From Candidatus Omnitrophota bacterium (GTDB lineage Bacteria > Omnitrophota > Gorgyraeia > Zapsychrales > Zapsychraceae), in assembly GCA_015233495.1 (NCBI GenBank), contig JADFXQ010000006.1, forward strand, positions 1 through 59,858: DNA of 59,858 nt. Reading direction: 5' to 3'. A program made the position numbers and the translations under genes. Shown piece by piece: positions 32,534 to 59,858 of this stretch (positions are counted from its first letter, which is position 1; each line of letters begins with the position of its first letter). The notes under the pieces are model-generated. The model was given only the letters and a program-made list of their open reading frames with translations, searched no databases and was not told the DNA's origin.

Positions 32534-32902
32534 ATGCAAGCTGATTTTTTTACTACATCCCAAGCTGCCAAGTATTTGCATGTGACGCGTTTCACAGTGC
32601 TGAATTGGATCAAGCAAGGAAAATTGCCGGCCGTTTCCACGCTCGGCGGTCACCAGCGGATAGCAAAAGCGTTGGTACTTTCTGCCGCGAAATTCAAACG
32701 GAGCAACGGGTTGAAACTGCCTCCGGCAACGCGGCAGGTTTCGGCAAATCTTTTGGCGCCTGTTCCGGTCAAAAGATCAGCGCCGGTTAGGTCGAAAAAT
32801 AATCCGAATATAGTTGAAGTTTTAAAAAAAGGCGCGTTTTCTTCCGGCAAATATATAGCGGCGATAACGCACAAATTTAATCACAATAATAAAGAAAATT
32901 GA
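32534..32902 (+). CDS. excisionase-like HTH (HTH_17) DNA-binding protein
   Basis: FTTSQAAKYLHVTRFTVLNWIKQGKL..TLGGHQRI; start moved to ATG 32534. Confidence 0.8.
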   Translation: MQADFFTTSQAAKYLHVTRFTVLNWIKQGKLPAVSTLGGHQRIAKALVLSAAKFKRSNGLKLPPATRQVSANLLAPVPVKRSAPVRSKNNPNIVEVLKKGAFSSGKYIAAITHKFNHNNKEN

Positions 32903-32909
32903 ACGCCTA

Positions 32910-34214
32910 ATGGATAAAGTTGAAGTCATTATTGTGGGCGCCGGGCCATCCGGTTTGACTTGCGCTTACACGCTTGCCAAAGCGGGCGTGGAAGTTGTGG
33001 TCATTGAGCGCGGGGAATATCCCGGCGCGAAAAATATGTTTGGCGGGATATTTTTTTCCAGCATCATGTCGAAAATATTCCCGGATTTTTTTGCAGACGC
33101 GCCTTGGGAAAGGTTTGTCGGAAAAAGAAAATTTTCACTGTTGGCCGGCAACAGCGAGATGGCTTTTGACTTTACTCCCAGCGCGTTTAATGAGCCGCCG
33201 TATAATCATTCGTTTATGGCGCGGCGCGGCAGCATGGACCAGTGGCTGGCGAAAAAAGCGGAAGCCGCGGGCGCGAGCATTATCAACAATTATTGCGTGA
33301 GCGATTTTTTGTATGAACACGACAAAGTGGTCGGGATCACCAGCGGCGGCGACCATGATACCTTGCTGGCGGACGTGATTGTCTGCGCGGAAGGCGCGAA
33401 TTCCCTGCTTTCCGAAAAGGCGCGGCTGCGCAAAAAAATCATGGCGGGCCGGCGGTCAATCGCGGTGAAGGAAAATATCCGTTTGCCGCGCGCCGTGATT
33501 GAAGACCGGTTTGGTTTGACCGGACGGCAAGGCGCGGCGTATGAATATTTCGGCGCTTCGGTGCAAGGCCTGTTGGGCAACGGATTTATTTACACGAATC
33601 AGGACAGTTTGTCGGTCGGTGTGGGATTTTCGTTGAGCGATTTCACCAAAACTCAGACAGATAAGAATCCCAACGATATCCTCGATGAATTTAAAAGTCA
33701 TCCGGTGATTGCGCCGTTGTTGCGCGGCGGGGAAACCATGGAATACATGGCGCACATGATCCCGTCGGACGGGTATGATTATCTGCCGAAACTTTATCGG
33801 GACGGGCTGTTGGTTGTCGGAGACGCGGCCGGGCTGTTGAACACGTCATTTTTTCATGAAGGCGTCAATCTGGCCATGGCCTCGGGCATTTTCGCAGCGG
33901 AAACGGTCATCGCGGCGCGGGAGCAAAAGGATTTCAGCGCGGACACCCTGGAGTTTTATGAAGAAAAACTCAAAAAAAGTTTTGTGCTCCAGGACTTGAA
34001 AAATTGCAAAAATTTTCTGTCATTTTTGCACAAACACAAATCGCTCATCAATGATTATCCGGTGTTGTTGAATAATGTTTTGGTCGATTATTTTCAGGTT
34101 TGCGAGAAGCCGAAAATCCAAATCAAAAAAGAAATTTTTCAGCGGGTCAAGAAAAACGTGAAATTCACCCGCGTGGCCTGGGATATGTGGGGAGCGTGGA
34201 GCAATTTGATATGA
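32910..34214 (+). CDS. fixC: FixC-like FAD oxidoreductase
   Basis: GAGPSG, ERGEYPGAKNMFGG, VVGDAAG, EGVNLAMASG. Confidence 0.88.
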   Translation: MDKVEVIIVGAGPSGLTCAYTLAKAGVEVVVIERGEYPGAKNMFGGIFFSSIMSKIFPDFFADAPWERFVGKRKFSLLAGNSEMAFDFTPSAFNEPPYNHSFMARRGSMDQWLAKKAEAAGASIINNYCVSDFLYEHDKVVGITSGGDHDTLLADVIVCAEGANSLLSEKARLRKKIMAGRRSIAVKENIRLPRAVIEDRFGLTGRQGAAYEYFGASVQGLLGNGFIYTNQDSLSVGVGFSLSDFTKTQTDKNPNDILDEFKSHPVIAPLLRGGETMEYMAHMIPSDGYDYLPKLYRDGLLVVGDAAGLLNTSFFHEGVNLAMASGIFAAETVIAAREQKDFSADTLEFYEEKLKKSFVLQDLKNCKNFLSFLHKHKSLINDYPVLLNNVLVDYFQVCEKPKIQIKKEIFQRVKKNVKFTRVAWDMWGAWSNLI

Positions 34215-34525
34215 CAAACAATAAAAAAACAGCGCTGCATTCGCCTGAAAAACAGTTGACGCTGGAAGACAAGCTTTTTTTGGTTAAGACGAAAAAGGAC
34301 ACGGTCAGTCATATCAAAGTTAATTCCAAAATGTGCAAACATTGCGCGTCTAAAATGTGTCTGATTGTGTGTCCGGCCAAAACTTATGAAGAGCGCAAAG
34401 GGGTGATTGAAGCCAATTATGAAAATTGTTTGGAGTGCGGCAGCTGCCGCGTCATTTGCACTGACGGGGCGATTGAATGGGAAAATCCCCGGGGGGGATT
34501 TGGAGTCACGTTTATCAATGGGTAA
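34211..34525 (+). CDS. fixX: FixX-like ferredoxin
   Basis: CKHC..MCLIVCPA and NCLECGSCRVIC, WENPRGGFGV; ATGA overlap with fixC. Confidence 0.88.
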   Translation: MTNNKKTALHSPEKQLTLEDKLFLVKTKKDTVSHIKVNSKMCKHCASKMCLIVCPAKTYEERKGVIEANYENCLECGSCRVICTDGAIEWENPRGGFGVTFING

Positions 34526-34570
34526 AGAAATTAAATATTCCAAAAAGGAAGTCTACGAAAGGAGTTATCA

Positions 34571-34741
34571 ATGGCGCATATTATCGGGGGAGCAATCGCT
34601 GCGGTACTGGGAATCTGCGGGATTATCGGCTGGTGGGATAATTTCGGCGATTTTTTAAGAGGCGGCGTGCCGTTGTTTTTGCTTATCGGCGGATTGATCG
34701 CTTTGAATACCGGACTCAAATTGACCCGGGGCAAACAATAA
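34571..34741 (+). CDS. mamI: magnetosome membrane protein MamI (56 aa, absent from the ORF track)
   Basis: Translated by hand: MAHIIGGAIAAVLGICGIIGWWDNFGDFLRGGVPLFLLIGGLIALNTGLKLTRGKQ; two TM helices with WW..F..G.P; AAGGAG RBS. Confidence 0.75.
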   Translation: MAHIIGGAIAAVLGICGIIGWWDNFGDFLRGGVPLFLLIGGLIALNTGLKLTRGKQ

Positions 34742-34756
34742 AGCGCGGGATGTTTT

Positions 34757-34978
34757 ATGATCGGTAAAACAGACAAATGCCTTAATCCTTGGTTTGGTTT
34801 TCTCATCATTTTATCGGTTTGCGTGGTGATTTCGGCAGCTATTTTCTACGAGTTCCGGGGGAACCCCGGGCATCGGCGGCCGCATCGGAAGACCGCGCCG
34901 CGTCAAACCGTGACGCCGGCGGCAGCGCCGAGTGCGGGGGGCGGTGTGGCGCCCGCCGCGGATAAATTGACGTTTTAA
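34757..34978 (+). CDS. small single-TM protein with His/Arg-rich tail
   Basis: 73 aa filling the mamI-mamE gap exactly; GHRRPHRK segment. Confidence 0.65.
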   Translation: MIGKTDKCLNPWFGFLIILSVCVVISAAIFYEFRGNPGHRRPHRKTAPRQTVTPAAAPSAGGGVAPAADKLTF

Positions 34979-34994: not shown

Positions 34995-36419
34995 ATGTCT
35001 GACCAAGACGATTCATTTTGCAGTAAACCGCTGGGCCCCTGGATCGCCGGTTTGGTAGTGACGGCAGTGATGTTGGTTTTCTGGGTGGTAATGCGGCGGG
35101 AAGATATTAAGAACGTAATGGACGCGGAAAACGGCACGCCCAACACGGTGAAACCGCCGAATCCGGGCGACCCGAAATTTCCCGGACCGGTTCAGCAGGC
35201 GGCTTTTCCTCAGCCGGCCGCGGTTTCGCGCGTCACATCCAATGGCGGCCCGCAGGCCTACGCGCAAAATAATCGTAATAACGCCAATTACGCGCCGGCG
35301 GCGATAACCAAAGCCACGCCCAACGGAGGTATGCAATTGGTTGCCGGCACGGACAGCAAATTTCAAAACTCTTTAAAAGACGCAGTCAACGCAATCATCC
35401 CGTCGGTGTGCGATATTCATGCCCGCCGGGTGGTAAGTGTGCCGGCGCCGGTCAATACGAATAATCAAGACCCGCGTTTCGCGCCGAATTTTGACGGGAC
35501 GATTGATAAATTCATTGAAAACAAAGGGTATGAAAATATCGGCGCCGGGATCTTTGTCGACGAGCGCGGTTATATATTGACCAATTATCATGTGACCAAA
35601 GACGCGACTGACATTTTCGTGACGATCACGGGAAATCCGACCCGCGACGTGCGCGCTGACATTGTCGCGCAGGAACCGACATTGGATTTGGCGGTGATCA
35701 AGGTGCGCGCGGACGGCCCGTTTCCGGAAGTCAAACTCGGGGATTCGAGTTTTTGCCAGATTGGCGATTATGTCGTAGCGGTGGGCAGTCCGTTCGGCAT
35801 GGAACAGACAGTGACGAGCGGCATTATCAGCGGCATCCGTAAATCCGTCGCGATTCAAGGAGTGCGATACGAAAATTTGTTTCAAACCGACGCGCCGATC
35901 AACCATGGTTCTTCCGGCGGACCGCTGGTGGATTTAAACGGCGATGTCATCGGACTCAATACCGCGATCTACGCGCCGACCGGTGTTTTTAACGGCACCG
36001 GATTCGCCATTCCCATCAATGATTGCAAAGATTTTTTGACGCAGGCGTTGCAGCGTAATTTTCCCGTGCCGGTTAATCGTAAAGGCATGGTCGCGGCAGC
36101 GCTGCCCAAAGTGACGGCCATGGACGCGTCGATTCCGGTGCGGTTCGGCTTGGAAGTCATGCCGGTCAACAGCGTGATTGCCAAGCAGTTTGGCATAACT
36201 CCTGGCCAAGGCGTTTTGGTTAACCGGGTGATGGATGAAAGCGCCGCCAGTTTCGCGGGTATCCAACGCGGCGATGTGGTGACGGCGATTGCCGGCGTGC
36301 CGGTCGCTTCCGGAGAGGATATTAAAAAAATCGTGGCGCATTTTCGAACCGGGGACAGCGTAAATGTCCGTATTTTAAGAAACGGAAAAACTGACGAGAT
36401 TTTAGTGAAACTTCAGTAG
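34995..36419 (+). CDS. mamE: magnetosome HtrA-type serine protease MamE (TM-protease-PDZ)
   Basis: Triad TNYHV, DLAVI, GSSGG; C-terminal PDZ; no CxxCH; mam context. Confidence 0.8.
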   Translation: MSDQDDSFCSKPLGPWIAGLVVTAVMLVFWVVMRREDIKNVMDAENGTPNTVKPPNPGDPKFPGPVQQAAFPQPAAVSRVTSNGGPQAYAQNNRNNANYAPAAITKATPNGGMQLVAGTDSKFQNSLKDAVNAIIPSVCDIHARRVVSVPAPVNTNNQDPRFAPNFDGTIDKFIENKGYENIGAGIFVDERGYILTNYHVTKDATDIFVTITGNPTRDVRADIVAQEPTLDLAVIKVRADGPFPEVKLGDSSFCQIGDYVVAVGSPFGMEQTVTSGIISGIRKSVAIQGVRYENLFQTDAPINHGSSGGPLVDLNGDVIGLNTAIYAPTGVFNGTGFAIPINDCKDFLTQALQRNFPVPVNRKGMVAAALPKVTAMDASIPVRFGLEVMPVNSVIAKQFGITPGQGVLVNRVMDESAASFAGIQRGDVVTAIAGVPVASGEDIKKIVAHFRTGDSVNVRILRNGKTDEILVKLQ

Positions 36420-36438
36420 CAGGAATTGGGTGACACAT

Positions 36439-37053
36439 ATGAAAACAAAAAAAACAACGAACGCCTGGAAAGTGCGGATTCAAAATTTTGTCGGTCGCGA
36501 GCCGGTTTTAGCCGCGGGGATTGTCATTTTCGCGCTGATTACCTTTTTTTGGGTATTGTCTTCCTTGGAATTGATTCCGGAACGGGCACAGCGCGTTACT
36601 GCGCCCAACGGAACGGTCTTTGAACCCGGCGACAGTGTGCAATGGATCGGGATGGATGTGATTCCTCTTACCCGGACAATCCGCAAGGAATTTAAAATTC
36701 CCGGCAAGATCAAAGGGATGTTTGTCCAAAACGAAGGCAAAGATTTGGCGCAAAGGTACGGGGTGAAGACCGGCGATATTTTAGTTTCGATCGGGCGCAA
36801 ATCAGTCGCTACTCAGAAAACTTTTGTTAATGTCGCCAACAATGTGAAATATTCGGACGGGATTTTGCTGGAGATCTTCCGCGACGGAAAAATATTTTAT
36901 TTGACGATTCCTTTTGAATATCAGTACGGGCCGCTTTTGGGCCCGAATAAAGGCAGCTGGCAGTTGGGATCGCCGGTTTTTGGACAGGCGTTTCCTTATG
37001 GGCCGGTGTTCCCGGGAAATAATCCGGGTAATAATCAGCAAAATAGACGATAG
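36439..37053 (+). CDS. TM-PDZ protein resembling MamE C-terminal part (mamE-Cter-like)
   Basis: QWIGMDVIPLT PDZ start, GVKTGDIL, GPNKGSWQL tail. Confidence 0.6.
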   Translation: MKTKKTTNAWKVRIQNFVGREPVLAAGIVIFALITFFWVLSSLELIPERAQRVTAPNGTVFEPGDSVQWIGMDVIPLTRTIRKEFKIPGKIKGMFVQNEGKDLAQRYGVKTGDILVSIGRKSVATQKTFVNVANNVKYSDGILLEIFRDGKIFYLTIPFEYQYGPLLGPNKGSWQLGSPVFGQAFPYGPVFPGNNPGNNQQNRR

Positions 37054-37072: not shown

Positions 37073-38623
37073 ATGATTAAAAAACCGAGTCCTAAGGGCG
37101 CGCTAATCCCGAAGTTGAATTTAAACGAATTTATGTCCCGCGCCAAAGACGCGGACTTGAATTCGTATTTTATTTTCGGCGCGATTATTCTGGTTTTGCT
37201 GGTCGGGATTTACGCGTTATTCGCTCCGGGTGTTGAAAGCCAGAAGGCGGGCAATCCGGCCTGCGGCAAGATCGTTATCGCGGCGGACGGGCCGTCATTA
37301 CGGAATAATGTGGCTCCGACATTGGAAAGCGCGAAATATTTTTTGGTAGTGGACCCGTTATCCGCGAAATTGGATGAGGCAATTCAAAATCCTTACCGTT
37401 CGACGCAGCCGGATTTACAAATTGTTTATCTCATCGCGGGTAAAGGCGAGGAAGCAGTGGTTGTTGGCAATATTGACTCGCAAAGTTATAAAATTTTAAT
37501 GCAATTCGGTATCCGGGTTTTTGGCGGCTATACCGGTCAGGCGAAAAAAGTTATCCGGTTATATAAACAGGCTCGGATCACGCCGACCCCTTTGCAGAAC
37601 GCAACTCCGCCGGCAATGACCGCCCCCGCGGCGATCGGCAGTGTCCCCAACGCGCCAGTCGCGTTTTTTCCGCAAGGTCAGCCGGCTCAGTCGGTGGGAA
37701 GACCCTGTCAGTTTGTTTGCCCGAATTGCCGATATAGCGCCGCTGGCCAGGATTTTGGCGGACCCTGTCCGCTTTGCCCGAATTGCCGGGGACAGATGAC
37801 GCGGCAAAACGCGGGGCAAGGCGCGGGCTGGGGTGTTCCGGATGTGAATGGAATGGGACAAATTTATCCGAATGGCAACCCTATGCTGCCGGGCGGCATG
37901 AACGCGGGATGGGGCGCAATGAATATGATGAACGGCCCGTGTCCTTTACCGGGACGCGGCGGATGGATGCAAGGCGCGATGATCCAGAACTTGCCGGACG
38001 CGGATACAATGCGCAAATCCAATCCCGGGACTCAAGTCGGATTTTTTGGCTGGGGACAGCAAGCGTTTGTCTGCCCCAATTGCAATTGGCGGATGAAAGC
38101 TTCCCGGCAGGGAAACAGTTTTCCGGATTGTCCGAATTGCGGCGCGCCGATGGCTTTGGATATGGCGGATAAGAATAAAGCCGGGGCGCCATGGGGAGGG
38201 GAACAGGCGGCGAATTTGAATCAAATGCCGCCGCAATATAATTCGGCGATGAACTCGTCGAATTATGCCGCGGCTCAGAACGGAGCAGGGATTTTCCAAT
38301 GCCCGAATTGCAATTGGCGGATGTACGGCCAATCCGGTCAAGGCGCATATCCGCGCTGCCCTAATTGCGGACAAATCATGGCGCAAGGCGGGGGCAACAA
38401 CCAGCCGAATTATTATAATCAAGGGAATGTTGCGATGGCGCCGGCAGCGGCCCAAATGCCGATCGCGGCGCCGGCTATAGCCAGCAACGCGGTGATGACG
38501 CATGAATACCGCGGCGTGTGTTCCAATTGTCATCAGATCATCGGGCCGACAGCCAACAGTCAAAATATGCAGCCGCCAGCAGGGAATTCCCTGCGCGTGG
38601 GAATTGGACGGCGAGCCAGATAA
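37073..38623 (+). CDS. TM + NifB/NifX-like domain + three CxxC..CxxC ribbons + magnetochrome heme domain (516 aa)
   Basis: IVIAADG..AKYFLVVD..VVVGNI..GIRVF NifX-like; six CPNC motifs; HEYRGVCSNCH at 38519-38533; start moved to ATG 37073. Confidence 0.8.
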   Translation: MIKKPSPKGALIPKLNLNEFMSRAKDADLNSYFIFGAIILVLLVGIYALFAPGVESQKAGNPACGKIVIAADGPSLRNNVAPTLESAKYFLVVDPLSAKLDEAIQNPYRSTQPDLQIVYLIAGKGEEAVVVGNIDSQSYKILMQFGIRVFGGYTGQAKKVIRLYKQARITPTPLQNATPPAMTAPAAIGSVPNAPVAFFPQGQPAQSVGRPCQFVCPNCRYSAAGQDFGGPCPLCPNCRGQMTRQNAGQGAGWGVPDVNGMGQIYPNGNPMLPGGMNAGWGAMNMMNGPCPLPGRGGWMQGAMIQNLPDADTMRKSNPGTQVGFFGWGQQAFVCPNCNWRMKASRQGNSFPDCPNCGAPMALDMADKNKAGAPWGGEQAANLNQMPPQYNSAMNSSNYAAAQNGAGIFQCPNCNWRMYGQSGQGAYPRCPNCGQIMAQGGGNNQPNYYNQGNVAMAPAAAQMPIAAPAIASNAVMTHEYRGVCSNCHQIIGPTANSQNMQPPAGNSLRVGIGRRAR

Positions 38624-38644: not shown

Positions 38645-38926
38645 ATGGCCAATAAATTATTAGTGTGCAATTTATGTAATGGTGAAATGCAGTTGTATAC
38701 CGGCCCGCGTTACAGCCGGAAACTCGGGGTGTTTTTAGTTGGGGTTGGTATTTTTCTTACTTTATTTTGGATGGGGCCGGTTTTGGGCGTGCCGCTTTTT
38801 TTCATCGGGCTCTATATGGTGGGCGCGAAACGCCAGCTCTGGGTATGCAAGGAATGTAATACCGGGATCGAACGGATTGAACTGAAACCGGAACAAACCG
38901 AAACCGTTAAAAAAACAAAAGAGTAA
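38645..38926 (+). CDS. CxxC-hydrophobic hairpin-CxxC membrane protein (LITAF-like topology)
   Basis: CNLC, two short hydrophobic helices, WVCKEC. Confidence 0.7.
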   Translation: MANKLLVCNLCNGEMQLYTGPRYSRKLGVFLVGVGIFLTLFWMGPVLGVPLFFIGLYMVGAKRQLWVCKECNTGIERIELKPEQTETVKKTKE

Positions 38927-38932
38927 AACATC

Positions 38933-40105
38933 GTGGCTGACAAACTTATCAAATATCGCAAACAAAGCCGGCAGAAATTTTTTCTGGTTTTGGCAGTGTT
39001 TTTTCTCGGGCTGCTTTTTGTGGCGGCCTTGATGCACATCGGGGCGGGAGACGCGGAATGGGGCGGGATGTCGGTGAGCAATGTTTCTGCGGCCAACGCG
39101 ATGGAATTCAATATTCCGAAAGACGAAAAAGGCGTAGTGGTCAACTGGTGCGAGGACCCTGCTTATTCTTCGGGTGTGCGCAGCGGCGATCTTTTGAAAG
39201 CCGTCAACAATCAGAAGATTAAAAATTTAGCGGACTTTTTAAAAGTGACCAAGCAAACCGAGTTAAGTCAAGGCGCGTTGTTGGACGTTTTGCGCAATGG
39301 CCAGCCGATTTACATCACCATGGAAAATAAATTGGGTCTGCATGACAGTATCAAGAAGAGTTTGAACATGGATATGGGCGTGACAGGAAAAAACCCGGCT
39401 GCCGCTCCACCGGCTGCAGCCAAAAGCGGCTCCACCGCGGGCGGACCGGGACAGTTAGCCGCGTTCGCTAACCGATCGCCGGCGGAAACCGCGGAAGCCG
39501 GAGTGGGACAGCCGGCGCCAGCGCCGTTGAATACGCAATTGCCAACCCCAAAACAACAGGGAGCGGCGAAAAAAGATTTGATTGAAGGTCATTGGTTGGG
39601 CATGGAGTTGATCCCGCTCACTCCGGAATTAGCGACTGAATATAAAGTCCCGCCGGATACAAAAGGTTTGTTGGTTGATGAGATTTGTTTGGAATCCGCG
39701 GAATCGGGTATTTTGGCGGGTGACATGGTAGTGGGCGTGGATGGGGTGGCGACTCCGGATTTGGTCGCTTTTACGGAAGCGACGCGCCGGGTCAAAAACC
39801 GCGACAGCGCTAAGATCACGGTTTCCCGGCGGGGGCGTATTCTGGATTTTAAGATTTCTTCTGAACGCACTTTGGGGTTTTCGCAGAATGAAGCGGCTCA
39901 GCCGATCGCGCCGGGCGCGATCAGCCCGCATCGCAGCCGCAATAAACCGTGCACCTCTTGTCATATAATTATGGTGACGGGCGGACAACTGCCGACGGAC
40001 GCGGGAGATATTTTACCGAACCCGCCTCCGATCACCAAGGGCGCGGTGGCGCCGCACGAATATCGCGGCAAATGCAAGAACTGTCACGTGATATTAAAAA
40101 AATGA
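38933..40105 (+). CDS. mamP: magnetosome protein MamP (TM, two PDZ, two magnetochromes)
   Basis: EGHWLGMELIP; PH..KPCTSCH and PHEYRGKCKNCH. Confidence 0.88.
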   Translation: MADKLIKYRKQSRQKFFLVLAVFFLGLLFVAALMHIGAGDAEWGGMSVSNVSAANAMEFNIPKDEKGVVVNWCEDPAYSSGVRSGDLLKAVNNQKIKNLADFLKVTKQTELSQGALLDVLRNGQPIYITMENKLGLHDSIKKSLNMDMGVTGKNPAAAPPAAAKSGSTAGGPGQLAAFANRSPAETAEAGVGQPAPAPLNTQLPTPKQQGAAKKDLIEGHWLGMELIPLTPELATEYKVPPDTKGLLVDEICLESAESGILAGDMVVGVDGVATPDLVAFTEATRRVKNRDSAKITVSRRGRILDFKISSERTLGFSQNEAAQPIAPGAISPHRSRNKPCTSCHIIMVTGGQLPTDAGDILPNPPPITKGAVAPHEYRGKCKNCHVILKK

Positions 40106-40126: not shown

Positions 40127-40582
40127 ATGAGTCTATTAGATTATATGCCGGTTTGTCTCAGGCTTAAAGGCGCGGAATGTTTGATTGTGGGCGGCGGCAA
40201 TGTGGCTTGGAGGAAGATTAAGGTATTAAAAAAATTCGGCGCGGCTTTGACCTGTATCAGTCCGGAATTTGTGGCCCCGCTCGAAAAATGGGGCAGAGAG
40301 GGCAAAGTCTGTTGTCAGTATAGGCGGTATCCCCAAAATTTGTCTTTGAAAAAGTATCAGCTGGTCTTCGCGGCTACGGATGACCCAGCTGTGAACCGGC
40401 GGGTCGCGGCAGACGCGGCCCGGGCTAAGATCTTAGTAAATGTGGCAGACCAAAGCGCGCCGGGAACGATGATTATGCCGGCGATTTTAAAACGAAAATA
40501 TTTCCTGATCAGCGTATCCACCGGCGGCCGCAGTCCGGCGTTGGCCAAGCAATTAAGGGACAAGTTGGATGCCGTCTTATAA
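40127..40582 (+). CDS. precorrin-2 dehydrogenase/sirohydrochlorin ferrochelatase (SirC/CysG-N-like), short
   Basis: VGGGNVAWRK, AATDD, NVAD, STGGRSPALA; 151 aa. Confidence 0.85.
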   Translation: MSLLDYMPVCLRLKGAECLIVGGGNVAWRKIKVLKKFGAALTCISPEFVAPLEKWGREGKVCCQYRRYPQNLSLKKYQLVFAATDDPAVNRRVAADAARAKILVNVADQSAPGTMIMPAILKRKYFLISVSTGGRSPALAKQLRDKLDAVL

Positions 40583-41366
40583 CATTATTTTTTTTTACGC
40601 GGGCTGTATTTTTTACGCGATCGGCACGGCGTTGGGAATCGCTTATTTTTCGCGTTCGCAGCCGCGGTTCTTTGATTATGCCAGACAGTGGATCGCGGTC
40701 GGCGCGGTCGCAGGGTTGTTTTTTCTGATTACGCGGTATCGAGATCAAGGGTATTTGCCATTGGTTTCGCTGTTTGAAATTACTTTTTTCTGGGCGTGGT
40801 TGTTGAGCATTGTCGTTTGTCTTTTGCTTAAGGCGGCAATGGCCAAGCCTATCCAGGCAGTCGCTTTGCTGATTTTTGACAGCGTGTTTATCTGGGATTT
40901 GTTTTTAGATAAGCAAAGCCATCTTTTGAATCCTTTATTGAACAGCCCGTGGCTCGGCATTCATGTTCCGGCGGTTATTTTAAGTTATAGCGCTTTTGCT
41001 TTGTCGTTCGCGATCAGCGTTTATCTGGTGATCGGGAAAAAATTCGGCCGGGCCAACGGCGGGTTAGACGCGTTGAACGCGGGATTGATTTTATTCGGCG
41101 TCGTGTTTTTGGGATTTGGGATTGTGACCGGGTCGATCTGGGCGCATACCGCGTGGGGAACTTATTGGAGCTGGGACCCGAAAGAAACTTGGGCGTTGAT
41201 TACGTTTTTGATTTATGGGACAGCAGTGGTGGCGCGCCGGGTATTCCGGATGGAACCGTTTTGGCAGGCGATGACTTCCATCGCGGGTTTTTTGTCAATG
41301 CTGATTACGTTTTTTGGCGTGAGTCTTTTCATGGTCAGTCATCATGCGTATAATGTTGTTAAATAA
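40569..41366 (+). CDS. ccsA: cytochrome c assembly protein, CcsA/HemX-like
   Basis: WWD motif WGTYWSWDPKE; His in WLGIHVP and the C-terminal SHHAY. Confidence 0.8.
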   Translation: MPSYNIIFFYAGCIFYAIGTALGIAYFSRSQPRFFDYARQWIAVGAVAGLFFLITRYRDQGYLPLVSLFEITFFWAWLLSIVVCLLLKAAMAKPIQAVALLIFDSVFIWDLFLDKQSHLLNPLLNSPWLGIHVPAVILSYSAFALSFAISVYLVIGKKFGRANGGLDALNAGLILFGVVFLGFGIVTGSIWAHTAWGTYWSWDPKETWALITFLIYGTAVVARRVFRMEPFWQAMTSIAGFLSMLITFFGVSLFMVSHHAYNVVK

Positions 41367-43351: not shown

Positions 43352-43473
43352 ATGACCAATGACAAAATTCAAAATTCAAAAATCCAAACATACAGCTTGG
43401 AATTTTTTGTTTTACGCCAGGGATTTTAAAATTTGAATTTATTTTGAATTTGGCGATTTATCATTCGAATTTT
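43351..43473. repeat. 7-bp-period AT-rich hairpin element
   Basis: aatgacc aatgaca aaattca aaattca aaaatcc arm and complementary tttgaattt..ttttgaattt arm at 43432-43451. Confidence 0.65.
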
Positions 43474-51764: not shown

Positions 51765-52715
51765 ATGGCAGTTCCGGAAAAATGCGTGAAATGCGGCAAA
51801 GTTGTTCCCTGGATGGTTTTGGTGGGAAACACTACCTTGTCGGTATTTCAGATATTCGTCGGCACGATGGCCGGGTCAAAGGGCTTGATCGCGGACGGAA
51901 TCCATTCGGGCACGGACGTTTTGACTACTCTGATGGTGATTATCACCGTCAGTTTGTCGGAACGCAAAAGCGACAAGCAGCATCCGTGGGGCCGGGGCAA
52001 AGCGGAATTTTTAGGCGCGGTGTTCGCTTACGCGTTGTTGTTATATATCGCGATCATGATTTTATTTGACGCCGGGAAAGTTTTGATCAGCGGGAACATT
52101 CATCCGCCGCACGCGGCCGCGTTTTTCTGCGCGGTGGTGGCGATTTTGGCGAATTATATTTTATCGGCTTATGGATTATGCGCCGGAAAAAAACTGAACT
52201 CGCCGGCCATGATCGCCAATGCCAATGAAAACCGTTCTGACATGGTCGCGAGCGTGGCAGTGGCCGCGGGGATTTTGTTGGCCAATATCGGATTCGTGAT
52301 CCTCGACGCGGTAGCCGCGTTTTTGGTCGGCTTGATGATCGGCCGGATGGCGCTCAAATTGGGGATCAGCGCTTTGCGCAATTTGATCGATGAATCACTG
52401 CCGGCGGAGAAAAAAGCGCTGATTGAAAAAGTGGCGTTGCAATATCAGGAAGTCAAAGGGATCAATTATTTGCATACCCGCCGGGTCGGGCAGCAGGCTT
52501 GGGTGGATATGGAAATCATCATTGATTCCAAACATACGGTGAAAGAAGGGCACGTGATTACCCGCGAAGTGCGGGCGGCTTTGATGCGGCGTTTCAGCCA
52601 GATCAAAGACATCACGATCACTTTTACCTGCCGGGAAAATCCGGCGGCAGCCGGCGTCGGGATTAAACCTCGCGCGGCCATGACCTTGAATAAACAATTA
52701 AGACCAGCTGCATAA
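51765..52715 (+). CDS. mamB: magnetosome CDF transporter MamB
   Basis: N-terminal CxxC, ADGIHSGTD TM2, NANENRSD TM5 (MamB-type). Confidence 0.8.
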   Translation: MAVPEKCVKCGKVVPWMVLVGNTTLSVFQIFVGTMAGSKGLIADGIHSGTDVLTTLMVIITVSLSERKSDKQHPWGRGKAEFLGAVFAYALLLYIAIMILFDAGKVLISGNIHPPHAAAFFCAVVAILANYILSAYGLCAGKKLNSPAMIANANENRSDMVASVAVAAGILLANIGFVILDAVAAFLVGLMIGRMALKLGISALRNLIDESLPAEKKALIEKVALQYQEVKGINYLHTRRVGQQAWVDMEIIIDSKHTVKEGHVITREVRAALMRRFSQIKDITITFTCRENPAAAGVGIKPRAAMTLNKQLRPAA

Positions 52716-52732: not shown

Positions 52733-53542
52733 ATGGAAGAACGAAAAAAGAATAAGATCACTGATGATAAAGTCGCCGGGGAATTAGAAACGGATACCGC
52801 CGAAGACCGCGAAACAGCGGAATCCGCCGGGAACGGCGCGCCAGAAACCAAAGTCAAACGGACGCGCAAGCCCAAGAAGAGCAAAGAGGAAAATTTGAAA
52901 GACAATATCACTCAAAAAATCCAGCTCGGCACGCACCGGATGTTGTCGACAACCGAGCGGATCATTCAGGGATTGTCGAATGCTTATGAGAACATTTTCA
53001 TCGGCAAGGAAGACGTGAAAAAGGATTTTGAAAAAGAGCAGGGGATCAAATTTTACAATAAAGGCAATTATGAACGCGCCTTGGAGCATTTTGACGCGTA
53101 TCTGCAAGACGTGGATGGCCAGGACGCGGATGTTTTGTATCTGATGGCCATGTGTCAGGTCCACCAGGGCGATCACAAAGCTGCGGCGGTTGATTTGAAA
53201 AAAGCGGAAAAATTGAGTCCCGAGGATGAGGACATCATCATGGAATCCGCCAAATGCCTTTTCGCGCTGGAAAATTACAGCGAGGCGTTGGCGTATTTGA
53301 AAAAAGCGACCGCGATTATTCCCGACGACGCGGATGTCTATTATCATCTCGGCACCTGTTACGAAAAGCTCGACCAGATCGAAGACGCGAAAAAGAATTA
53401 TAAAAAGGCGATTGATTTGAGTCCGCGGGAAGCGGTTTATTATCACGCTTTGGGTTTTGTCTACGAAAATTCCGGCAATCATAAAGACGCCATTGTCTGT
53501 TTTAAAAAAGCGATGGATTTGGAACGCGAAAAAAAGACGTAA
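52733..53542 (+). CDS. mamA: magnetosome TPR protein MamA
   Basis: Tandem TPRs (GIKFYNKGNYERAL, YYHLGTCY, YHALGFVY); low-complexity N-terminus; mam context. Confidence 0.75.
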   Translation: MEERKKNKITDDKVAGELETDTAEDRETAESAGNGAPETKVKRTRKPKKSKEENLKDNITQKIQLGTHRMLSTTERIIQGLSNAYENIFIGKEDVKKDFEKEQGIKFYNKGNYERALEHFDAYLQDVDGQDADVLYLMAMCQVHQGDHKAAAVDLKKAEKLSPEDEDIIMESAKCLFALENYSEALAYLKKATAIIPDDADVYYHLGTCYEKLDQIEDAKKNYKKAIDLSPREAVYYHALGFVYENSGNHKDAIVCFKKAMDLEREKKT

Positions 53543-54318: not shown

Positions 54319-56130
54319 ATGGCGCTGACCAAACAAAAAATGGCGCGGTTGCAACCGACAAAACGCTGGGCATCGTTTCCGTTGGTGGAATCGGCGATCG
54401 CTCTGATCGTGATCATCATGCTCGCGGCCTTATTTTTCGACAGCCGCAATATGCCCCCCCAGGGAGCGTCGCGCGTGGCCCAATCCAGCGGCGGCAGCGC
54501 ATTGGAATTTGATGTCATCACGGTCAATCCGATCATCGCGAAGGATTTCAGTTTGCCGTACGCTTCCGGCGTTTTGGTCAACAGCGCTCCCACCGGCGCG
54601 GCCCGCAAGTTGATTGATATCCGGCGCGGCGACGTGATTTTGCAATACAATCAGGTCAATGTCGAGTCAGCCAACCATTTCGCCTATTTGATGTCGCAGA
54701 GCAAGCCCGGAGACAACATCAGTTTTGTCATCTCGCGCAACGGCAAATCCCTGACAGTCAGCGGCAAAATTCCCGTCGAGACCGGGCTGGATATATTTGG
54801 CGCCAACGGCATGGCGGTCTTTGTGACCTTGGTCATTATTCTTATTACATTCACGGCCCTGTTCCTGAATTTGTTTGACCGCACCATCTGCGTGACCTTA
54901 GGCGCGGTGCTGATGTTGGTCGCGGGTTCGATGCTGGGATTTTACCGGCAAAGCGAGGCCTTTGATTCGATCCGGATGAGCCCGATTTTCGTGTTGATCG
55001 GCATGAGTATTTTTGCCCTATTTTTGGAAAACTTGCGCTATTTTGATTATGTGGCCAAACGCTTGGTCCTTGCCATGCAGGGGGATAAGATCAAGATCAT
55101 TTTCGCTTTGTGCATATTGACCGCGGTCGCCTCGGCGTTTATGAATAATATTTCGATCATTTTGATCATTGTCCCGATCACGATTTACGTAGCCAAGGGG
55201 TTGAATTTTGACCCGATTCCGGTGGTGATTGCCGAAGTCATTTCTTCGGCGGTCGGCGGCAATATGACGCCGATCGGCGATTTTTCCAATATGCTGATCG
55301 CGACCAGCGCCGGTCTAACTTTTATCGATTTCCTCTTATTCATGGGGCCGATTTGCGCGATTTGTCTGGCCGCGTTTCTGGGTTATATGTGGTATTTTGA
55401 ATTTCGCCATATTAAACAGCCCCGGTCGCAGAGCATTGAGAAGGCTTTTTTGAAGAAACTCGAAACTGAAATCGAAGCGATGCGTTTGGATTGGCCGGCG
55501 ATTAAACGGGTTTTGTATGTTTTAGGATCCGTAATCGCGGCGTTTATCATTTTGCCGTTTTTTAAAATTCATCTCGCGCCGATCGCCTTAGGCGGCGGGT
55601 TTATCCTGCTGGCGCTCGAGAATCAAAAAGCGAAAGAGATCATCAAAAAAATCAGCCTCACGGATATTTTGTTTTTTATTTCTTTGTTTTTAATCGTCGG
55701 CGGCGCGCTTTATTCCGGGTTGTTAAAAATTCTTTCCGATATCCTCATCGCTTTATCCATGGGCAATCAAGTCGCGTATCTGATTTTAATGATGTGGACG
55801 ATGGCCTTGTTCACCGCGTTTATGAACGCCGGGCCGGCCACGGCGTTTTTCATCCCGATTATCATAAGCTCGGGTTATGCGGATTTTACCGACGTGATCT
55901 GGTGGGCGTTGAACCTCGGATCGATCGCCGGTTCCTGCGCGTGTATTACGGGCGCCAGCGCCGGGATCATATCCCAAACGCTCGTCGAGGAACATTATCC
56001 GATCCGGGCGGGCGATAAGGATAAGGAAGGCTTGACTTTCGCGAGTTACAGCCGCCGGGGAATTCCGACGGCGATCGGATTTTTGATTTTGTCTTCTATT
56101 TATATTGTCATATTAAGTATGATTCCTTAA
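54319..56130 (+). CDS. mamN: PDZ domain fused to MamN-like ArsB/NhaD-superfamily transporter (603 aa)
   Basis: TM, PDZ (GVLVNS, IRRGDVIL), then SAFMNN, GGNMTPIGDFSN, GSCACITGASAG. Confidence 0.65.
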   Translation: MALTKQKMARLQPTKRWASFPLVESAIALIVIIMLAALFFDSRNMPPQGASRVAQSSGGSALEFDVITVNPIIAKDFSLPYASGVLVNSAPTGAARKLIDIRRGDVILQYNQVNVESANHFAYLMSQSKPGDNISFVISRNGKSLTVSGKIPVETGLDIFGANGMAVFVTLVIILITFTALFLNLFDRTICVTLGAVLMLVAGSMLGFYRQSEAFDSIRMSPIFVLIGMSIFALFLENLRYFDYVAKRLVLAMQGDKIKIIFALCILTAVASAFMNNISIILIIVPITIYVAKGLNFDPIPVVIAEVISSAVGGNMTPIGDFSNMLIATSAGLTFIDFLLFMGPICAICLAAFLGYMWYFEFRHIKQPRSQSIEKAFLKKLETEIEAMRLDWPAIKRVLYVLGSVIAAFIILPFFKIHLAPIALGGGFILLALENQKAKEIIKKISLTDILFFISLFLIVGGALYSGLLKILSDILIALSMGNQVAYLILMMWTMALFTAFMNAGPATAFFIPIIISSGYADFTDVIWWALNLGSIAGSCACITGASAGIISQTLVEEHYPIRAGDKDKEGLTFASYSRRGIPTAIGFLILSSIYIVILSMIP

Positions 56131-56136: not shown

Positions 56137-57120
56137 ATGACTATGAAAAATAATAATCTGAAGACGCATGATTGGATCGGTTATGCCAATATCGCGTTGG
56201 GTTTGATCGTGGCGATTTTTGCTCTGATCGCGATGTTTAGTTCTCCTACGGCGAAACTGCAGCTGCCAGTCCCGATTCCCCCCAGCGTGGCGGTGGATCA
56301 GCCGATCTGGCTTTTGGCCTTGATCGGATTCGCGATCGGTTGTTATGGCACGATCGTCGGCATCGGCGGCGGTCCGTTGATTCTGCCGATTTTGGTTTTT
56401 TTCTATGGGTGGGAAAATGAATTTCTGGTTGCCACATCGTTGTTCATTGTGCTTTTGAATGCCGGCTCTGGCTGTCTGGGTTATGCCATGCAAAAACGCA
56501 TCGATTACAAAGGCGGCATCAAGTTTACGCTCGCCGCGATGCCCGGCGCTTTCATCTCCAGCTATATTCATCACTTAGTCAATCTGACGTTTTTTAATCT
56601 GATTTTCGGCGTATTTTTGATTTTTCTCGCCGGGTATACTTTGGTCAGCATGGGGAGGATCGACAAAACCACGGAAGAAAAACAGAAAAATCTCAAAGAA
56701 GCGAAAGCCCAAGGATTCCGCCGCGTCCGGTTTATTGATAATTTCAAAATCTCCTATGATTTTTACGCCAATGATAAAATGGGCATTTCTATGAATTTGA
56801 TGCTGGGATTTTTTTGCGGATTTTTGGGCATTGGCGGCGGGGTTTTTCAAGTCCCGATTTTGCTTTTTCTTCTGAATTATCCGACGCATATCGCGACCGC
56901 GACGAGCCATTTTGTCACCCTGATGACCTGCGCGATCGCCATTTTGCCGCATGTGTTTCTCGGCAATTTCATGTATGGGGAAGCGATGTGGATGGGGTTT
57001 GGCGTGATCGTCGGCGCGCAAGTCGGCGCGCGGCTTGCCGCGAAACTGAACACCAAAGTCACGCTGTATTTATTCATTATTATTTTGATCGTGTTTGCGG
57101 TCAAATTGTTTTTTGTTTAA
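56137..57120 (+). CDS. mamO: TauE/SafE-family membrane protein, MamO C-terminal type
   Basis: GIGGGPLILP and GIGGGVFQVP repeats, GAQVGARL; no protease domain. Confidence 0.7.
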   Translation: MTMKNNNLKTHDWIGYANIALGLIVAIFALIAMFSSPTAKLQLPVPIPPSVAVDQPIWLLALIGFAIGCYGTIVGIGGGPLILPILVFFYGWENEFLVATSLFIVLLNAGSGCLGYAMQKRIDYKGGIKFTLAAMPGAFISSYIHHLVNLTFFNLIFGVFLIFLAGYTLVSMGRIDKTTEEKQKNLKEAKAQGFRRVRFIDNFKISYDFYANDKMGISMNLMLGFFCGFLGIGGGVFQVPILLFLLNYPTHIATATSHFVTLMTCAIAILPHVFLGNFMYGEAMWMGFGVIVGAQVGARLAAKLNTKVTLYLFIIILIVFAVKLFFV

Positions 57121-57681: not shown

Positions 57682-58239
57682 ATGAAAAAAGAAACTATGA
57701 TCGCGTTGTGCGGCTTGGTGTTTATCGCCTTGCTGGTAGTCGCTCTGTTCAACCACAAAGATGCGCAGGTCGCGGTTGATGAAACTTTGCATGAGATCAA
57801 GACCGCGGATGCCTGGCAGCAGTCCGCGCACGCTCCGTGTCCGGTGGGAGGACCAGGTTCCGCTTCGCCTTATTCGGGCCCGAATCAGCCGGTCGCGCTC
57901 AACGGCGCGCCGCCGATTCTGGCGGGGCAAGAAAAACCGGCGCTGATCAAACAAATGGGCGCGGAAGTGCTGCAAGTCGGCGGCGGCAAAGTCAAGATCA
58001 CCGGCGTAATGGGCAGTTCCTGGGCGGACAAAGCGGGATTAAAGGCGAATGATATTTTGCTTTCGTTTAATGGAAAAAAAATAACCAGTTTGCAGCAGTT
58101 TCAAGATTTGACTCTGAGCGCTCCGCCGGAAAAAGAATATAAGGTGACTTATTTGCGCGGCGGCCGGCTAAAGAAAGCTCTGCTGATGATCGGGGAAGGG
58201 GAAATGGAAGGATTTACGCCCATTCCGCAACCGAAGTAA
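57682..58239 (+). CDS. TM-PDZ protein, MamP-like but heme-less
   Basis: TM, APPILAG segment, GVMGSSWADKAGLKANDIL PDZ; no CxxCH. Confidence 0.7.
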   Translation: MKKETMIALCGLVFIALLVVALFNHKDAQVAVDETLHEIKTADAWQQSAHAPCPVGGPGSASPYSGPNQPVALNGAPPILAGQEKPALIKQMGAEVLQVGGGKVKITGVMGSSWADKAGLKANDILLSFNGKKITSLQQFQDLTLSAPPEKEYKVTYLRGGRLKKALLMIGEGEMEGFTPIPQPK

Positions 58240-58251
58240 AGCAATGACAAA

Positions 58252-58593
58252 ATGAATCCATTGCGCGGTAAATTAGCGGTGTTTCTGACGGGGGCGGCTT
58301 ATAAAGGGATCGGCCAGCTCGATCAAAAGTCGCCATTGGCGAAAGAATTAAAAAAATTTGATTTCGATGCGGTTCTCAAAGACGACATCGCAAAAATTTG
58401 CGATAAAATTTCTTTTTTTGAGATGACGAAAGTCATGGCTCTGGCGGCGCAGGTAGATTTGCGTCTGGCTGATCAGGAGAAACAAAAGTCCGAAATTAAA
58501 AAAATCGCTCACGACGTGATTGAGCGTATCGAACGGGAATCCGGCAAATTACGCGTGCCGCAGGCGTGTTTAGAAATGTTGTTTAATTTGTAG
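58252..58593 (+). CDS. hypothetical helical protein (113 aa)
   Basis: Tightly packed ORF in the mam cluster; no family recognised. Confidence 0.7.
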   Translation: MNPLRGKLAVFLTGAAYKGIGQLDQKSPLAKELKKFDFDAVLKDDIAKICDKISFFEMTKVMALAAQVDLRLADQEKQKSEIKKIAHDVIERIERESGKLRVPQACLEMLFNL

Positions 58594-58636
58594 GTGCGGC
58601 ATAAAAAAGAACCAATATTATCAAGGAGATAGTCAG

Positions 58637-59500
58637 TTGAAAACGTTTTTCATGAAGATTTTTTTGGTGATCGCCGCCGGCCTTTGTATGTTCGAGGGAT
58701 TGGTTTTGCTCGCGGTTGGATTGGGACGTTTATCGCCGGACCGGTTGGTGACTTTTTATAATCAGCTTTTACAGCAGGCCGCGGCGCTCAAAACTATTCA
58801 GGGAGTTGGGTCTTTTTTTGTTGCTTTGGGTTTTTTACTGTTATTATTAGCTGCCCGAGCCAAACCCGCGGCAAAAACGATCGCGGTGGAACAGGATGGG
58901 AAAATCCTGACGATCCCCCAGAAAACCGTGATGGATTTTATCCAGCAGATCGGCGAGCAAAATCCTTTTGTGACTTATTTCCGCACAACTTTTGAGCAAA
59001 AGCCGAAACAGCCGGTAACCATCGCGATTATTGTTGAGCTGAGCGGGGTGCCTTCCGTGCACCAAGTGCTGCAGCAAATTGAAAACACTTTAATCGCCGA
59101 ACTCGATAATGTCTTTGCCTGGCATAATTTTAAGTTTGATTTTCGTCTGCAGGGATTGGTCGTGAATCCTAAGAAAAAATATTTTCCCGAAGAGGAATCT
59201 CAGCCGGCTGCGCCTTTGGCCGGGGCAATGCCGCCGGCCGCCGCAGCGGAAAAAGCCGCGGTTGTGGAACCCGCGCCGGAAACCTCCGGGATCGAAATTT
59301 TAGCCAAAGAAAAAGCCCAGATGAACAAATCCGTTGTTCTCCCTCTAAAAAAAACCGCGGCGTCAGCGCTCGCGGCGCAACCGGCCGCGGAAGAAATTGA
59401 ACCGTCCGTCAGGGATACGGAAGAAGAACAATTGTTTGATTCCACCGGGGAAAAAGCGGCGAAGCCGTCTTTTTTGTCTAAGGTGTTGTGGGGGAAATAA
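58637..59500 (+). CDS. AmaP/Asp23-like membrane anchor protein with Ala/Pro/Glu-rich tail
   Basis: Two TM helices, then an alpha/beta segment (LTIPQKTVMDFI); start uncertain (TTG 58637 or ATG 58652). Confidence 0.55.
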   Translation: MKTFFMKIFLVIAAGLCMFEGLVLLAVGLGRLSPDRLVTFYNQLLQQAAALKTIQGVGSFFVALGFLLLLLAARAKPAAKTIAVEQDGKILTIPQKTVMDFIQQIGEQNPFVTYFRTTFEQKPKQPVTIAIIVELSGVPSVHQVLQQIENTLIAELDNVFAWHNFKFDFRLQGLVVNPKKKYFPEEESQPAAPLAGAMPPAAAAEKAAVVEPAPETSGIEILAKEKAQMNKSVVLPLKKTAASALAAQPAAEEIEPSVRDTEEEQLFDSTGEKAAKPSFLSKVLWGK

Positions 59501-59522
59501 TCCGGAAAAGTTATTTAAAAAA

Positions 59523-59858
59523 ATGTCTGATCAATTGACCAAGATTCCGAAATCTTCACGAACCGCGTCGTCCTTACCGCCGGAAGTTAAAAGCGGCGGG
59601 GAAAAATCATCGCTAGCCCCGCTGCGGTTTGGGGGAGCGGCGCCGGATTCGTTTACCTCCGAGAAACGTATTGTCCGGAAAGTCGCGATTGTCGGACTGC
59701 CCAACACCGGCAAAAGCCAAATCTTTAATAATCTCACCGGCGAATATAACATTGTCGCTAATTACGAGCGAACCACCATTGAGATCAAGCGGGCCTTGGC
59801 GAAGATCAGCAACCGGTTTTTTGAAATCATCGACACCCCCAGTTTGCACTGTCTTTAT
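59523..59858 (+). CDS. feoB: FeoB-like GTPase (Mad17/Mad30 type), truncated by the window edge
   Basis: Translated by hand: ..KVAIVGLPNTGKSQIFNNLTGEYNIVANYERTTIE..EIIDTPSLHCLY; G1, G2 and G3 motifs. Confidence 0.75.
   Translation, partial: MSDQLTKIPKSSRTASSLPPEVKSGGEKSSLAPLRFGGAAPDSFTSEKRIVRKVAIVGLPNTGKSQIFNNLTGEYNIVANYERTTIEIKRALAKISNRFFEIIDTPSLHCLY

Follow-up and report, generated by a model that had tools for sequence, protein, structure and literature searches.

A predicted complete heme biosynthesis cassette nested in an Omnitrophota magnetosome gene cluster

Why would a bacterium carry its genes for heme synthesis inside the gene cluster of an organelle? The question is raised by a stretch of 59,858 nucleotides (contig JADFXQ010000006.1 of assembly GCA_015233495.1; hereafter the window) from the metagenome-assembled genome (MAG) of an uncultured Candidatus Omnitrophota bacterium, here labelled G000, which comprises 2.1 Mb in 111 contigs and is 91% complete. 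The window contains an Omnitrophota-type magnetosome gene cluster, known here from its genes alone, and an 11-gene cassette of 10.2 kb for heme synthesis is nested in it, between mamP and the mamL-mamM-mamB block. Magnetochromes are redox proteins that set the balance of Fe(II) and Fe(III) in magnetite growth; because the model magnetotactic bacteria are respiring Proteobacteria rich in heme, the source of magnetochrome heme has been taken for granted. The explanation towards which we lean, with moderate confidence, is that the cassette would provide a heme supply dedicated to the magnetochromes, perhaps extending to heme hand-over, and is probably co-transcribed with the mam genes. Joint transcription would then yield heme mainly for the c-type hemes of MamP and of a NifX-magnetochrome protein; the nesting would date to the ancestor of the crown Omnitrophota clusters, and the cassette would have been deleted where the host owns a heme operon and a CcsB-CcsA pair.

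A heme pathway between mamP and mamL

Genes were named by Pfam and NCBIfam profile searches on the window proteins (Table 1). Only 21 bp separate the end of mamP (40105) from the start of sirC (40127), and 62 bp the end of hemL (50359) from the start of the mamL-like gene (50422); most cassette genes are linked by overlaps of 4-31 bp. The gene order, the common strand and both spacers had been given in a preliminary description of the window made from the letters alone, and the profile searches and coordinates bear them out. The same holds for its statement that the cassette leads from glutamyl-tRNA to heme b by way of siroheme: every enzyme appears to be encoded, which supports a self-contained route that is predicted to use the oxygen-independent siroheme (Ahb) steps. 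The names AhbA to AhbD survive as those of the best-scoring NCBIfam models, with all four scores under the equivalog cut-offs, and AhbA and AhbB have above-threshold matches to the Pfam families NirdL-like_HTH and AsnC_trans_reg2. For the supply of siroheme, both CobA and the CysG-N/SirC domain exceed the cut-offs of their models, SirC spanning 144 of the 205 model positions. There is no separate sirohydrochlorin ferrochelatase gene in the cassette (CbiX/CbiK genes elsewhere in the genome were not searched for), and chelation is therefore assigned, as an assumption, to the CysG-N/SirC-type protein. The slightly higher score of the AhbC-like enzyme with NirJ than with AhbC raised the possibility of a heme d1 pathway, which was rejected: the genome has no NirS, NirF or NirN-like CxxCH protein, a second, AhbD-type enzyme is present, and the gene order is that of Ahb operons. 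A consensus scan found no promoter-like or terminator-like site at either junction, with counts at shuffle level that make this result of little help; together with the short spacers and the overlaps it is what speaks for a transcript shared with the mam genes. Rfam gave no match over the whole window, hence no riboswitch before the cassette.

With the Ahb pathway of Desulfovibrio and Methanosarcina (PMC3942049, PMC7242693) the cassette shares a putative AhbA/AhbB pair, the two radical-SAM/SPASM enzymes assigned as AhbC and AhbD, CobA and SirC, as well as the feed by HemA, HemL, HemB, HemC and HemD. It differs in forming one operon inside an organelle gene cluster, in its sub-cut-off scores and in having no separate chelatase gene. 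Fusions within the cassette were seen in other members, namely AhbD-AhbA (480 aa; L127 8081-9523) and AhbB-HemL (592 aa; L132 10001-11779).

The nesting is shared by relatives. The organism was placed in the Omnitrophota through MamP relatives in GTDB species genomes, and the window proteins were mapped onto 21 Omnitrophota clusters, the MAGs coming mostly from the magnetotactic surveys of Lin et al. Seven clusters are embedded, i.e. contain the cassette: that of G000 and those of six other species-level genomes, of which five (G001, G003, G004, G006 and G008) display both junctions and one (G002) the left junction. In G006 both junctions lie within a single 269-kb contig. The other 14 clusters are direct, mamP joining the mamL-like gene. 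A HemL search of 5.8 billion proteins retrieved 23 embedded-type clusters (58-69% identity, at least 554 bits), beyond which the scores fall sharply to 489 bits or less. Eight new HemL contexts were inspected; two lie outside mam genes and six read MamP-cassette-MamL/M/B, giving six extra nested contigs (two from JGI 3300041085, and one each from GCA_024449895.1, SRR22387926, JGI 3300037264 and SRR16235686). About 13 clusters thus share the nesting, and its junctions are tight despite some 35-45% protein divergence.

Since the source MAG is fragmented into 111 contigs, one could suspect that assembly or binning has joined a heme operon to mam genes. The chance of this is vanishingly small: identical junctions were found in independent assemblies from at least nine samples and on contigs of up to 269 kb. 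Misassembly and a one-off rearrangement are both excluded by the same nesting in six other genomes and six contigs. The preliminary description had held that misassembled junctions, or a one-off rearrangement of the sole housekeeping heme operon, would overturn it; the former is contradicted, and of the latter only the first half applies, the operon being the sole one of its genome (see below) but not a one-off. The cluster comparison that it had proposed shows the nesting to be real and old. G006 (nDJH6bin5) has two copies of the arrangement hemB-...-hemL-mamL-mamM-mamB-... on different contigs (L054 C11 and L055 C16), about 0.11 substitutions per site apart on the Mam-protein tree, which could mean that the MAG mixes strains or that the cluster has really been duplicated.

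Candidate heme users and the ccsA-like gene

If the heme were meant for the magnetochromes, one would look for what else in the genome makes or uses it. Searches of the whole MAG with each cassette protein (tblastn) returned no second hemA, hemB, hemC, hemD, hemL, ahbA, ahbB, sirC or PF01578 gene and no further tetrapyrrole methylase (TP_methylase), so that there is no cobalamin pathway and the cassette cannot be read as part of one. UroD (PF01208) of the classical route, present in 98 of the 168 genomes of the order, is absent from G000. Apart from the cassette the genome has no tetrapyrrole pathway; the second hem/ahb set for which the preliminary description had asked was looked for and not found. 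Likewise, all embedded genomes have HemB solely of the embedded type, and another heme operon is absent in seven out of seven. Among the direct genomes, 11 of 14 have HemB elsewhere in a different operon, and the remaining three are 65-74% complete.

On the side of consumption, the three magnetochrome domains of the genome (PF18509, above cut-off) all lie in the two magnetochrome genes just 5′ of the cassette, one in the NifX-magnetochrome gene and two in mamP, as had been noticed before. Of 18 stop-to-stop open reading frames (ORFs) of at least 100 aa with a CxxCH motif, a cytochrome-like context was seen only in MamP (2) and the NifX-magnetochrome protein (1); the others are DnaJ, UvrA, a zinc alcohol dehydrogenase, radical-SAM enzymes, a permease, a flavodoxin-like protein, a Cys-rich secreted protein and spurious frames, and among ORFs of 50-99 aa ribosomal protein L31 is the sole real gene with the motif. 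No cytochrome bd (CydA), siroheme sulfite/nitrite reductase (NIR_SIR) or ResB was found in the genome. MamP and the NifX-magnetochrome protein would thus appear to be the only plausible heme c proteins that it encodes. HemB is absent in 12 of the 45 genomes of the same family (6 of the 25 that are 90% complete or more), the closest non-magnetotactic congeners included, which indicates that heme synthesis is dispensable there; nor is it universal in the phylum (Seymour et al., PMC10066038). Across the order, AhbC occurs in 11/20 genomes with MamP and in 9/148 without (Fisher p 3e-7, uncorrected for phylogeny). Two non-magnetotactic congeners, G158 and G162 (both 92% complete), have no MamP, HemB, PF01578 protein, AhbC or UroD, so either an island of mam and heme genes came or went in one piece, or binning missed the contigs that carry it. 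The closest match to the cassette's AhbC outside the embedded group, 49% identical, is an AhbC/NirJ-like radical-SAM gene in a non-magnetotactic, HemB-less member of the family (G188:C40:3786-4901).

It could also be that the position of the cassette is meaningless, either because a housekeeping Ahb operon was trapped among mam genes or because an iron/heme locus was the nucleus around which mam genes came together, the cassette being retained just for other, unrecognised heme-requiring functions of the cell. We regard such neutral capture as rather unlikely, although the cassette is the sole heme operon of its genome and its gene order matches that of stand-alone operons of related Omnitrophota. 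Both junctions have stayed tight through the divergence of about 13 clusters, the CxxCH, CydA and NIR_SIR searches brought up no other consumer of heme or siroheme in the genome, and heme is dispensable in the family, even in the closest congeners.

Several observations nevertheless weigh against a dedicated supply. A neutral model would equally predict that the cassette is lost where it is redundant, redundancy alone being sufficient wherever another pathway exists. The census of hemoproteins covered CxxCH motifs, CydA, NIR_SIR and ResB in a MAG that is 91% complete, and heme b proteins such as cytochrome b, catalase or sensor domains may be encoded besides. The absences in G158 and G162 could come from a binning failure of one island carrying mam and heme genes. 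The direct-type genome G185 (that of L017; 93% complete) has hemC-cobA/hemD-hemB-hemL but no AhbC/D and no UroD, which means that a recognisable endogenous heme pathway is not a universal companion of the cluster. Finally, the cassette type has no strict tie to mam clusters, since two relatives lie outside them. One (L126/L128, on a 190-kb Logan contig of SRR31876453) has a full Ahb set without ccsA behind histidine kinases, FeoB, Fur and DtxR/FeoA, the 12 kb upstream and 10 kb downstream being free of mam genes; the other (L129, a JGI contig) has hemA-hemC-cobA/hemD-hemB-hemL-sirC, without ahb genes, behind FeoAB, Fur and ApbE. FeoB, DtxR/FeoA and ApbE also flank the magnetosome cluster of the window, as neutral capture at an iron/heme locus would have it. 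Both non-mam HemL proteins fall within the embedded-type clade, at its base, one as sister to an embedded HemL. Their cassettes may have been left behind when the mam genes were lost, or may represent an older iron/heme locus around which mam genes gathered. In L126/L128 a 23S_rRNA_IVP gene is inserted between hemB and ahbD.

Whether the heme could be handed to the magnetochromes depends on the ccsA-like gene. Its product scores 153 bits on the CcsA model (cut-off 188) and has the WWD motif WGTYWSWD at residues 196-203; the periplasmic histidines flanking this motif (IHVP, SHHAY) are kept in all embedded copies, and their naming follows that of the CcsBA literature. The transmembrane (TM) histidine after the motif, LH(L/Q)R in the CcsA of G016, G006 and G012, is replaced in the embedded copies, which read VARR, VLRK, LLRK or ILEK. 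CcsB/ResB (PF05140) is absent in all six genomes with a cassette ccsA (G000, G001, G002, G003, G004 and G008), and adjoins CcsA in G006 and in nine direct-type genomes; G006 is the sole embedded genome whose cassette is without ccsA, and it has a ResB-CcsA pair elsewhere. Related stand-alone heme operons carry a true ResB/CcsB-CcsA pair at the ccsA position. Because the six carriers are without ResB, G006 has the pair instead and the relatives have the pair at this very place, the gene seems to behave as a System II substitute. A canonical member of System II it is not: with CcsBA/ResBC (PMC13645880) it shares the CcsA-type WWD protein, and it differs in the absence of CcsB/ResB from its carriers and in the missing TM histidine. 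Of the proposal in the preliminary description that the module also attaches heme, the WWD motif stands, whereas the partner protein and that histidine do not. The CcsA-like protein would either hand heme to the magnetochromes or tune HemA in the manner of HemX.

The latter possibility, that it is a HemX-type regulator of glutamyl-tRNA reductase without any part in magnetochrome heme attachment, is a serious one, although we would put it at less than even. As in HemX of the hemAXCDBL operons of Bacillus and Staphylococcus, a PF01578 protein without CcsB is encoded beside the glutamyl-tRNA reductase gene, and in the cassette it adjoins both hemA and sirC, the HemX position. HemX, which lowers the abundance of this reductase, has homologues that adjoin gtrR in 94% of carrier genomes, are also found close to cysG and exist even where c-type cytochromes are lacking (PMC5801465). 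The loss of the TM histidine from all embedded copies points the same way. However, the cassette protein differs from HemX in keeping the canonical WWD motif of CcsA and both flanking periplasmic histidines, and its genome must mature CxxCH proteins. A regulator would leave the conserved CxxCH sites of MamP without an attachment system; the CcsB-CcsA pair at the same place in stand-alone operons and the exchange seen between G006 and the six carriers also argue against it.

More tentatively, and on balance doubtfully, a pared-down, CcsB-free CcsA-type WWD protein might export or ligate heme for MamP and the NifX-magnetochrome protein, making the cluster autonomous from glutamate to magnetochrome. 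If true, System II would exist here in a minimal version specific to its clients, in an otherwise heme-free fermentative lineage, and the organelle gene cluster of a prokaryote would, as is rarely seen, encode the synthesis of its own cofactor. Related Omnitrophota (L121, L122 and L124) have a CcsA of about 520 aa with a signal peptide, next to ResB in or near the heme operon; its N-terminal periplasmic domain of about 230 aa has no Pfam match.

Origin and loss of the nesting

The embedded cassette has a single origin. Embedded HemB is monophyletic (support 100/99), and in a tree of 10 heme proteins the embedded clade receives 100/100, with G008+(G006b, (G002, G006)) at 99/99. The embedded HemB clade is apart from two other operon kinds in related genomes. 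The first, hemC-cobA/hemD-hemB-hemL, occurs in the majority of the genomes of the window's family and in some of family f7, which have UroD and no Ahb genes. The second, in some f7 genera, is a stand-alone hemA-ccsB-ccsA-sirC-hemC-cobA/hemD-ahbC-hemB-ahbD-ahbA-ahbB-hemL operon, whose order matches that of the cassette at an identity of just 35-52%. Those of G012, G005 and G016 share with the cassette hemC-cobA/hemD-ahbC-hemB-ahbD-ahbA-ahbB-hemL together with sirC, hemA and a PF01578 gene, and differ from it in lying outside the magnetosome cluster and in having ResB/CcsB beside CcsA.

The trees of Mam proteins (left genes, right genes and all nine) agree with one another, and on them the embedded clusters are spread across all three major clades. 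One clade of five (100/100) unites the direct clusters of G021 and G015 (f7) with the embedded ones of G000, G001 and G003 (f1), the order of these last three being left unresolved by the Mam tree, and G008 (f7) groups with other f7 clusters. Monophyly of the embedded clusters on the Mam tree was rejected by the approximately unbiased (AU) test (log-likelihood difference 1033, p 1.4e-8) for a group delimited once the tree had been seen; no fewer than five changes between the embedded and direct states are needed. The discordance of the Mam tree with the species families fits horizontal movement of the cluster, as the preliminary description had suggested. In the comparison of phylogenies that it had called for, heme-cassette and Mam trees are congruent where both are resolved, at G008+(G006, G002), and the embedded clusters are scattered on the latter.

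This scatter could be taken to mean that the nesting is derived, a single insertion between mamP and mamL having spread among co-resident Omnitrophota by homologous recombination, or the junction being a hot spot. The minimum of five changes applies in either direction, a single site yielded four of the embedded lineages (nDJH6 bins 5, 13, 14 and 28), and the two deepest clusters (G019 and G020) as well as those of other phyla are without the cassette. Even so we consider it improbable, given that the cassette tree matches the Mam tree where it is resolved, that the trees of the left and right flanking genes agree, and that direct G021 and G015 sit in a fully supported clade with embedded G000, G001 and G003, which fits deletion. 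From the single origin of the cassette and the agreement of its tree with that of the Mam proteins where both are resolved, we infer that the nesting is probably ancestral to the crown Omnitrophota clusters and was repeatedly deleted. RpoB, used as species marker, resolves the pairs G157 (embedded)+G158 and G161 (embedded)+G162, but gives weak support (Shimodaira-Hasegawa-like approximate likelihood ratio test, 84-93) to the sub-clade holding the embedded genomes, and is missing from G093/G008 and G160.

The surrounding cluster and its significance

The genes around the cassette are those of a magnetosome cluster (Table 1): best matches to MamE, MamP, MamM, MamB, MamA and MamQ were found along with the three magnetochromes, at scores below the equivalog cut-offs of the Mam models in NCBIfam, which were trained on Alphaproteobacteria. 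While these six names from the preliminary description hold, its mamI and mamL have no profile match, being kept here as MamI-like and MamL-like for genes whose position is conserved across related clusters, and its mamO corresponds to the TauE part only. The region, earlier begun at 32534, which is the ATG of the helix-turn-helix (HTH) gene, has its first mam gene at 34757, and the conserved cluster starts by 26525, passes the window end and reaches the contig end at 64720. Every sizeable ORF from about 26.5 kb to the window end is on the + strand, and in the 4.9 kb of contig beyond, FeoB is completed and followed by a FecR-like and a DtxR/FeoA gene.

Table 1. Genes of the magnetosome cluster and of the nested heme cassette, with positions in the window
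Feature	Position	Strand	Basis or remark
CHASE2-SpoIIE phosphatase	26525-28567	+	Pfam; conserved upstream block
RsbW-like kinase	28690-29106	+	Pfam; conserved upstream block
STAS protein	29140-29472	+	Pfam; conserved upstream block
Phosphonate-binding-like gene	29506-30378	+	not conserved in related clusters
Ion channel	30385-31170	+	Pfam; conserved upstream block
ApbE	31258-32214	+	Pfam; conserved upstream block
HTH_17/MerR-type DNA-binding protein	32534-32902	+	profile match; 5′ of mamI in nearly all related clusters
FixC-like FAD oxidoreductase	32910-34214	+	profile match
FixX-like ferredoxin	34211 (probable start)-34525	+	profile match
MamI-like, 73 aa, single TM	34757-34978	+	named by size, position, conservation; no profile match
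MamE-type HtrA protease (trypsin + PDZ), no magnetochrome	34995-36419	+	NF040960 MamE, 247 bits
Membrane-anchored single-PDZ protein	36430-37053	+	profile match
NifX-like domain + six CxxC pairs + one magnetochrome	37073-38623	+	CSNCH, residue 536 of long ORF
93-aa membrane protein, two CxxC pairs	38645-38926	+	conservation, motif
MamP: two PDZ + two magnetochrome CxxCH domains	38933-40105	+	NF040965, 219 bits
SirC / CysG N-terminal type precorrin-2 dehydrogenase, 151 aa	40127-40582	+	TIGR01470, 118 bits (cut-off 62)
CcsA-like PF01578 membrane protein, WWD motif	40569-41366	+	only PF01578 gene in genome
HemA, glutamyl-tRNA reductase	41418-42500	+	TIGR01035, 316 bits (cut-off 209)
HemC, hydroxymethylbilane synthase	42476-43351	+	Pfam
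CobA/HemD fusion, uroporphyrinogen-III methyltransferase + synthase	43444-44988	+	Pfam/NCBIfam
AhbC-like radical SAM/SPASM enzyme, 390 aa	44967-46139	+	NirJ 313, NirJ1 304, AhbC 300 bits; all below cut-offs
HemB, porphobilinogen synthase	46126-47142	+	445 bits
AhbD-like heme synthase, radical SAM/SPASM, 339 aa	47112-48131	+	best TIGR04545, 310 bits, below cut-off
AhbA, siroheme decarboxylase subunit	48128-48595 (trimmed start)	+	NF040708, 115 bits (cut-off 140)
AhbB, siroheme decarboxylase subunit	48585-49073	+	NF040707, 112 bits (cut-off 125)
HemL, glutamate-1-semialdehyde aminomutase	49070-50359	+	Pfam/NCBIfam
MamL-like, 91 aa, two TM	50422-50697	+	no profile match; orthologues with weak LapA_dom match
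MamM, CDF transporter	50694-51590	+	Pfam/NCBIfam
MamB, CDF transporter	51765-52715	+	Pfam/NCBIfam
MamA, TPR	52733-53542	+	Pfam/NCBIfam
MamQ, LemA	53592 (probable start)-54308	+	Pfam/NCBIfam
PDZ-CitMHS MamN-like transporter	54319-56130	+	Pfam
TauE-type protein	56137-57120	+	Pfam
PDZ protein	57682-58239	+	Pfam
Two conserved proteins without assigned family	58252-58593, 58637-59500	+	conservation
FeoB	59349-61622 (N-terminus in window, 59397-59858)	+	followed by FecR-like, DtxR/FeoA

Homologues of the 26525-32214 block stand in the same order 5′ of the HTH gene in most related clusters, embedded and direct, and the block is probably a regulatory or accessory portion of the magnetosome cluster. 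Its CHASE2-SpoIIE, RsbW-like and STAS genes form a partner-switching set that precedes most of the Omnitrophota magnetosome clusters examined. The strongest promoter-like site of the region (32333-32362) lies 5′ of the HTH gene. Between the HTH and mamI-like genes, fixC-fixX encode a flavoprotein like electron transfer flavoprotein-quinone oxidoreductase (ETF-QO) and a ferredoxin, with no fixAB nearby; among related clusters the pair was found only in six of the seven genomes with an embedded cassette (L004-L007, L009) and in none of the direct clusters. FixCX could serve as redox partner of the radical-SAM Ahb enzymes or of the magnetochromes. On another, 6-kb contig of G000 (C86, L065) there are a cation diffusion facilitator (CDF) transporter (1091-1822; 26% identical to MamB) and a tetratricopeptide repeat (TPR) protein (4587-5294; 30% identical to MamA), probably ordinary paralogues and not a second cluster. 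Upstream in the window, F-type ATP synthase genes (4208-9888; alpha 5343-6890, beta 8034-9437) and a P-type cation ATPase gene (10183-12717) look ordinary.

A magnetosome gene cluster of Ca. Omnitrophus magneticus SKK-01 was reportedly described by Kolinko et al. in 2016; a literature search, which did not cover that work, returned no report of the nesting or of magnetosome clusters linked to siroheme or ahb genes. The Omnitrophota clusters of Lin et al. (2018, 2020; PMC7602337), the source of several of the related contigs, have the same gene set and order from the mamI-like gene through FeoB, and the 2020 paper does not mention heme. In 14 of the 21 clusters compared here mamP and mamL are directly joined, whereas that of the window adds the 10.2 kb of heme genes and the upstream fixCX. 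The parts, i.e. Omnitrophota clusters, the Ahb pathway and HemX/CcsA proteins, are known, and the novelty lies in how they are combined: the core operon of a prokaryotic organelle cluster encloses an entire cofactor pathway, which has no other copy in the genome, is conserved and co-diverges with the cluster, and is absent from the clusters of genomes that own a heme operon.

What this means for magnetosome biology is drawn from the comparative genomics of uncultured bacteria. The ccsA-like product is a candidate for a CcsB-independent heme-handling protein. The embedded and direct clusters offer a natural experiment in the acquisition and loss of accessory modules by organelle clusters, the cassette being kept in hosts without other heme synthesis and absent where the host has its own. 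They suggest that heme supply can limit magnetosome formation, and that transfer of a magnetosome cluster to heme-poor or Ccm-less hosts may need such a module.

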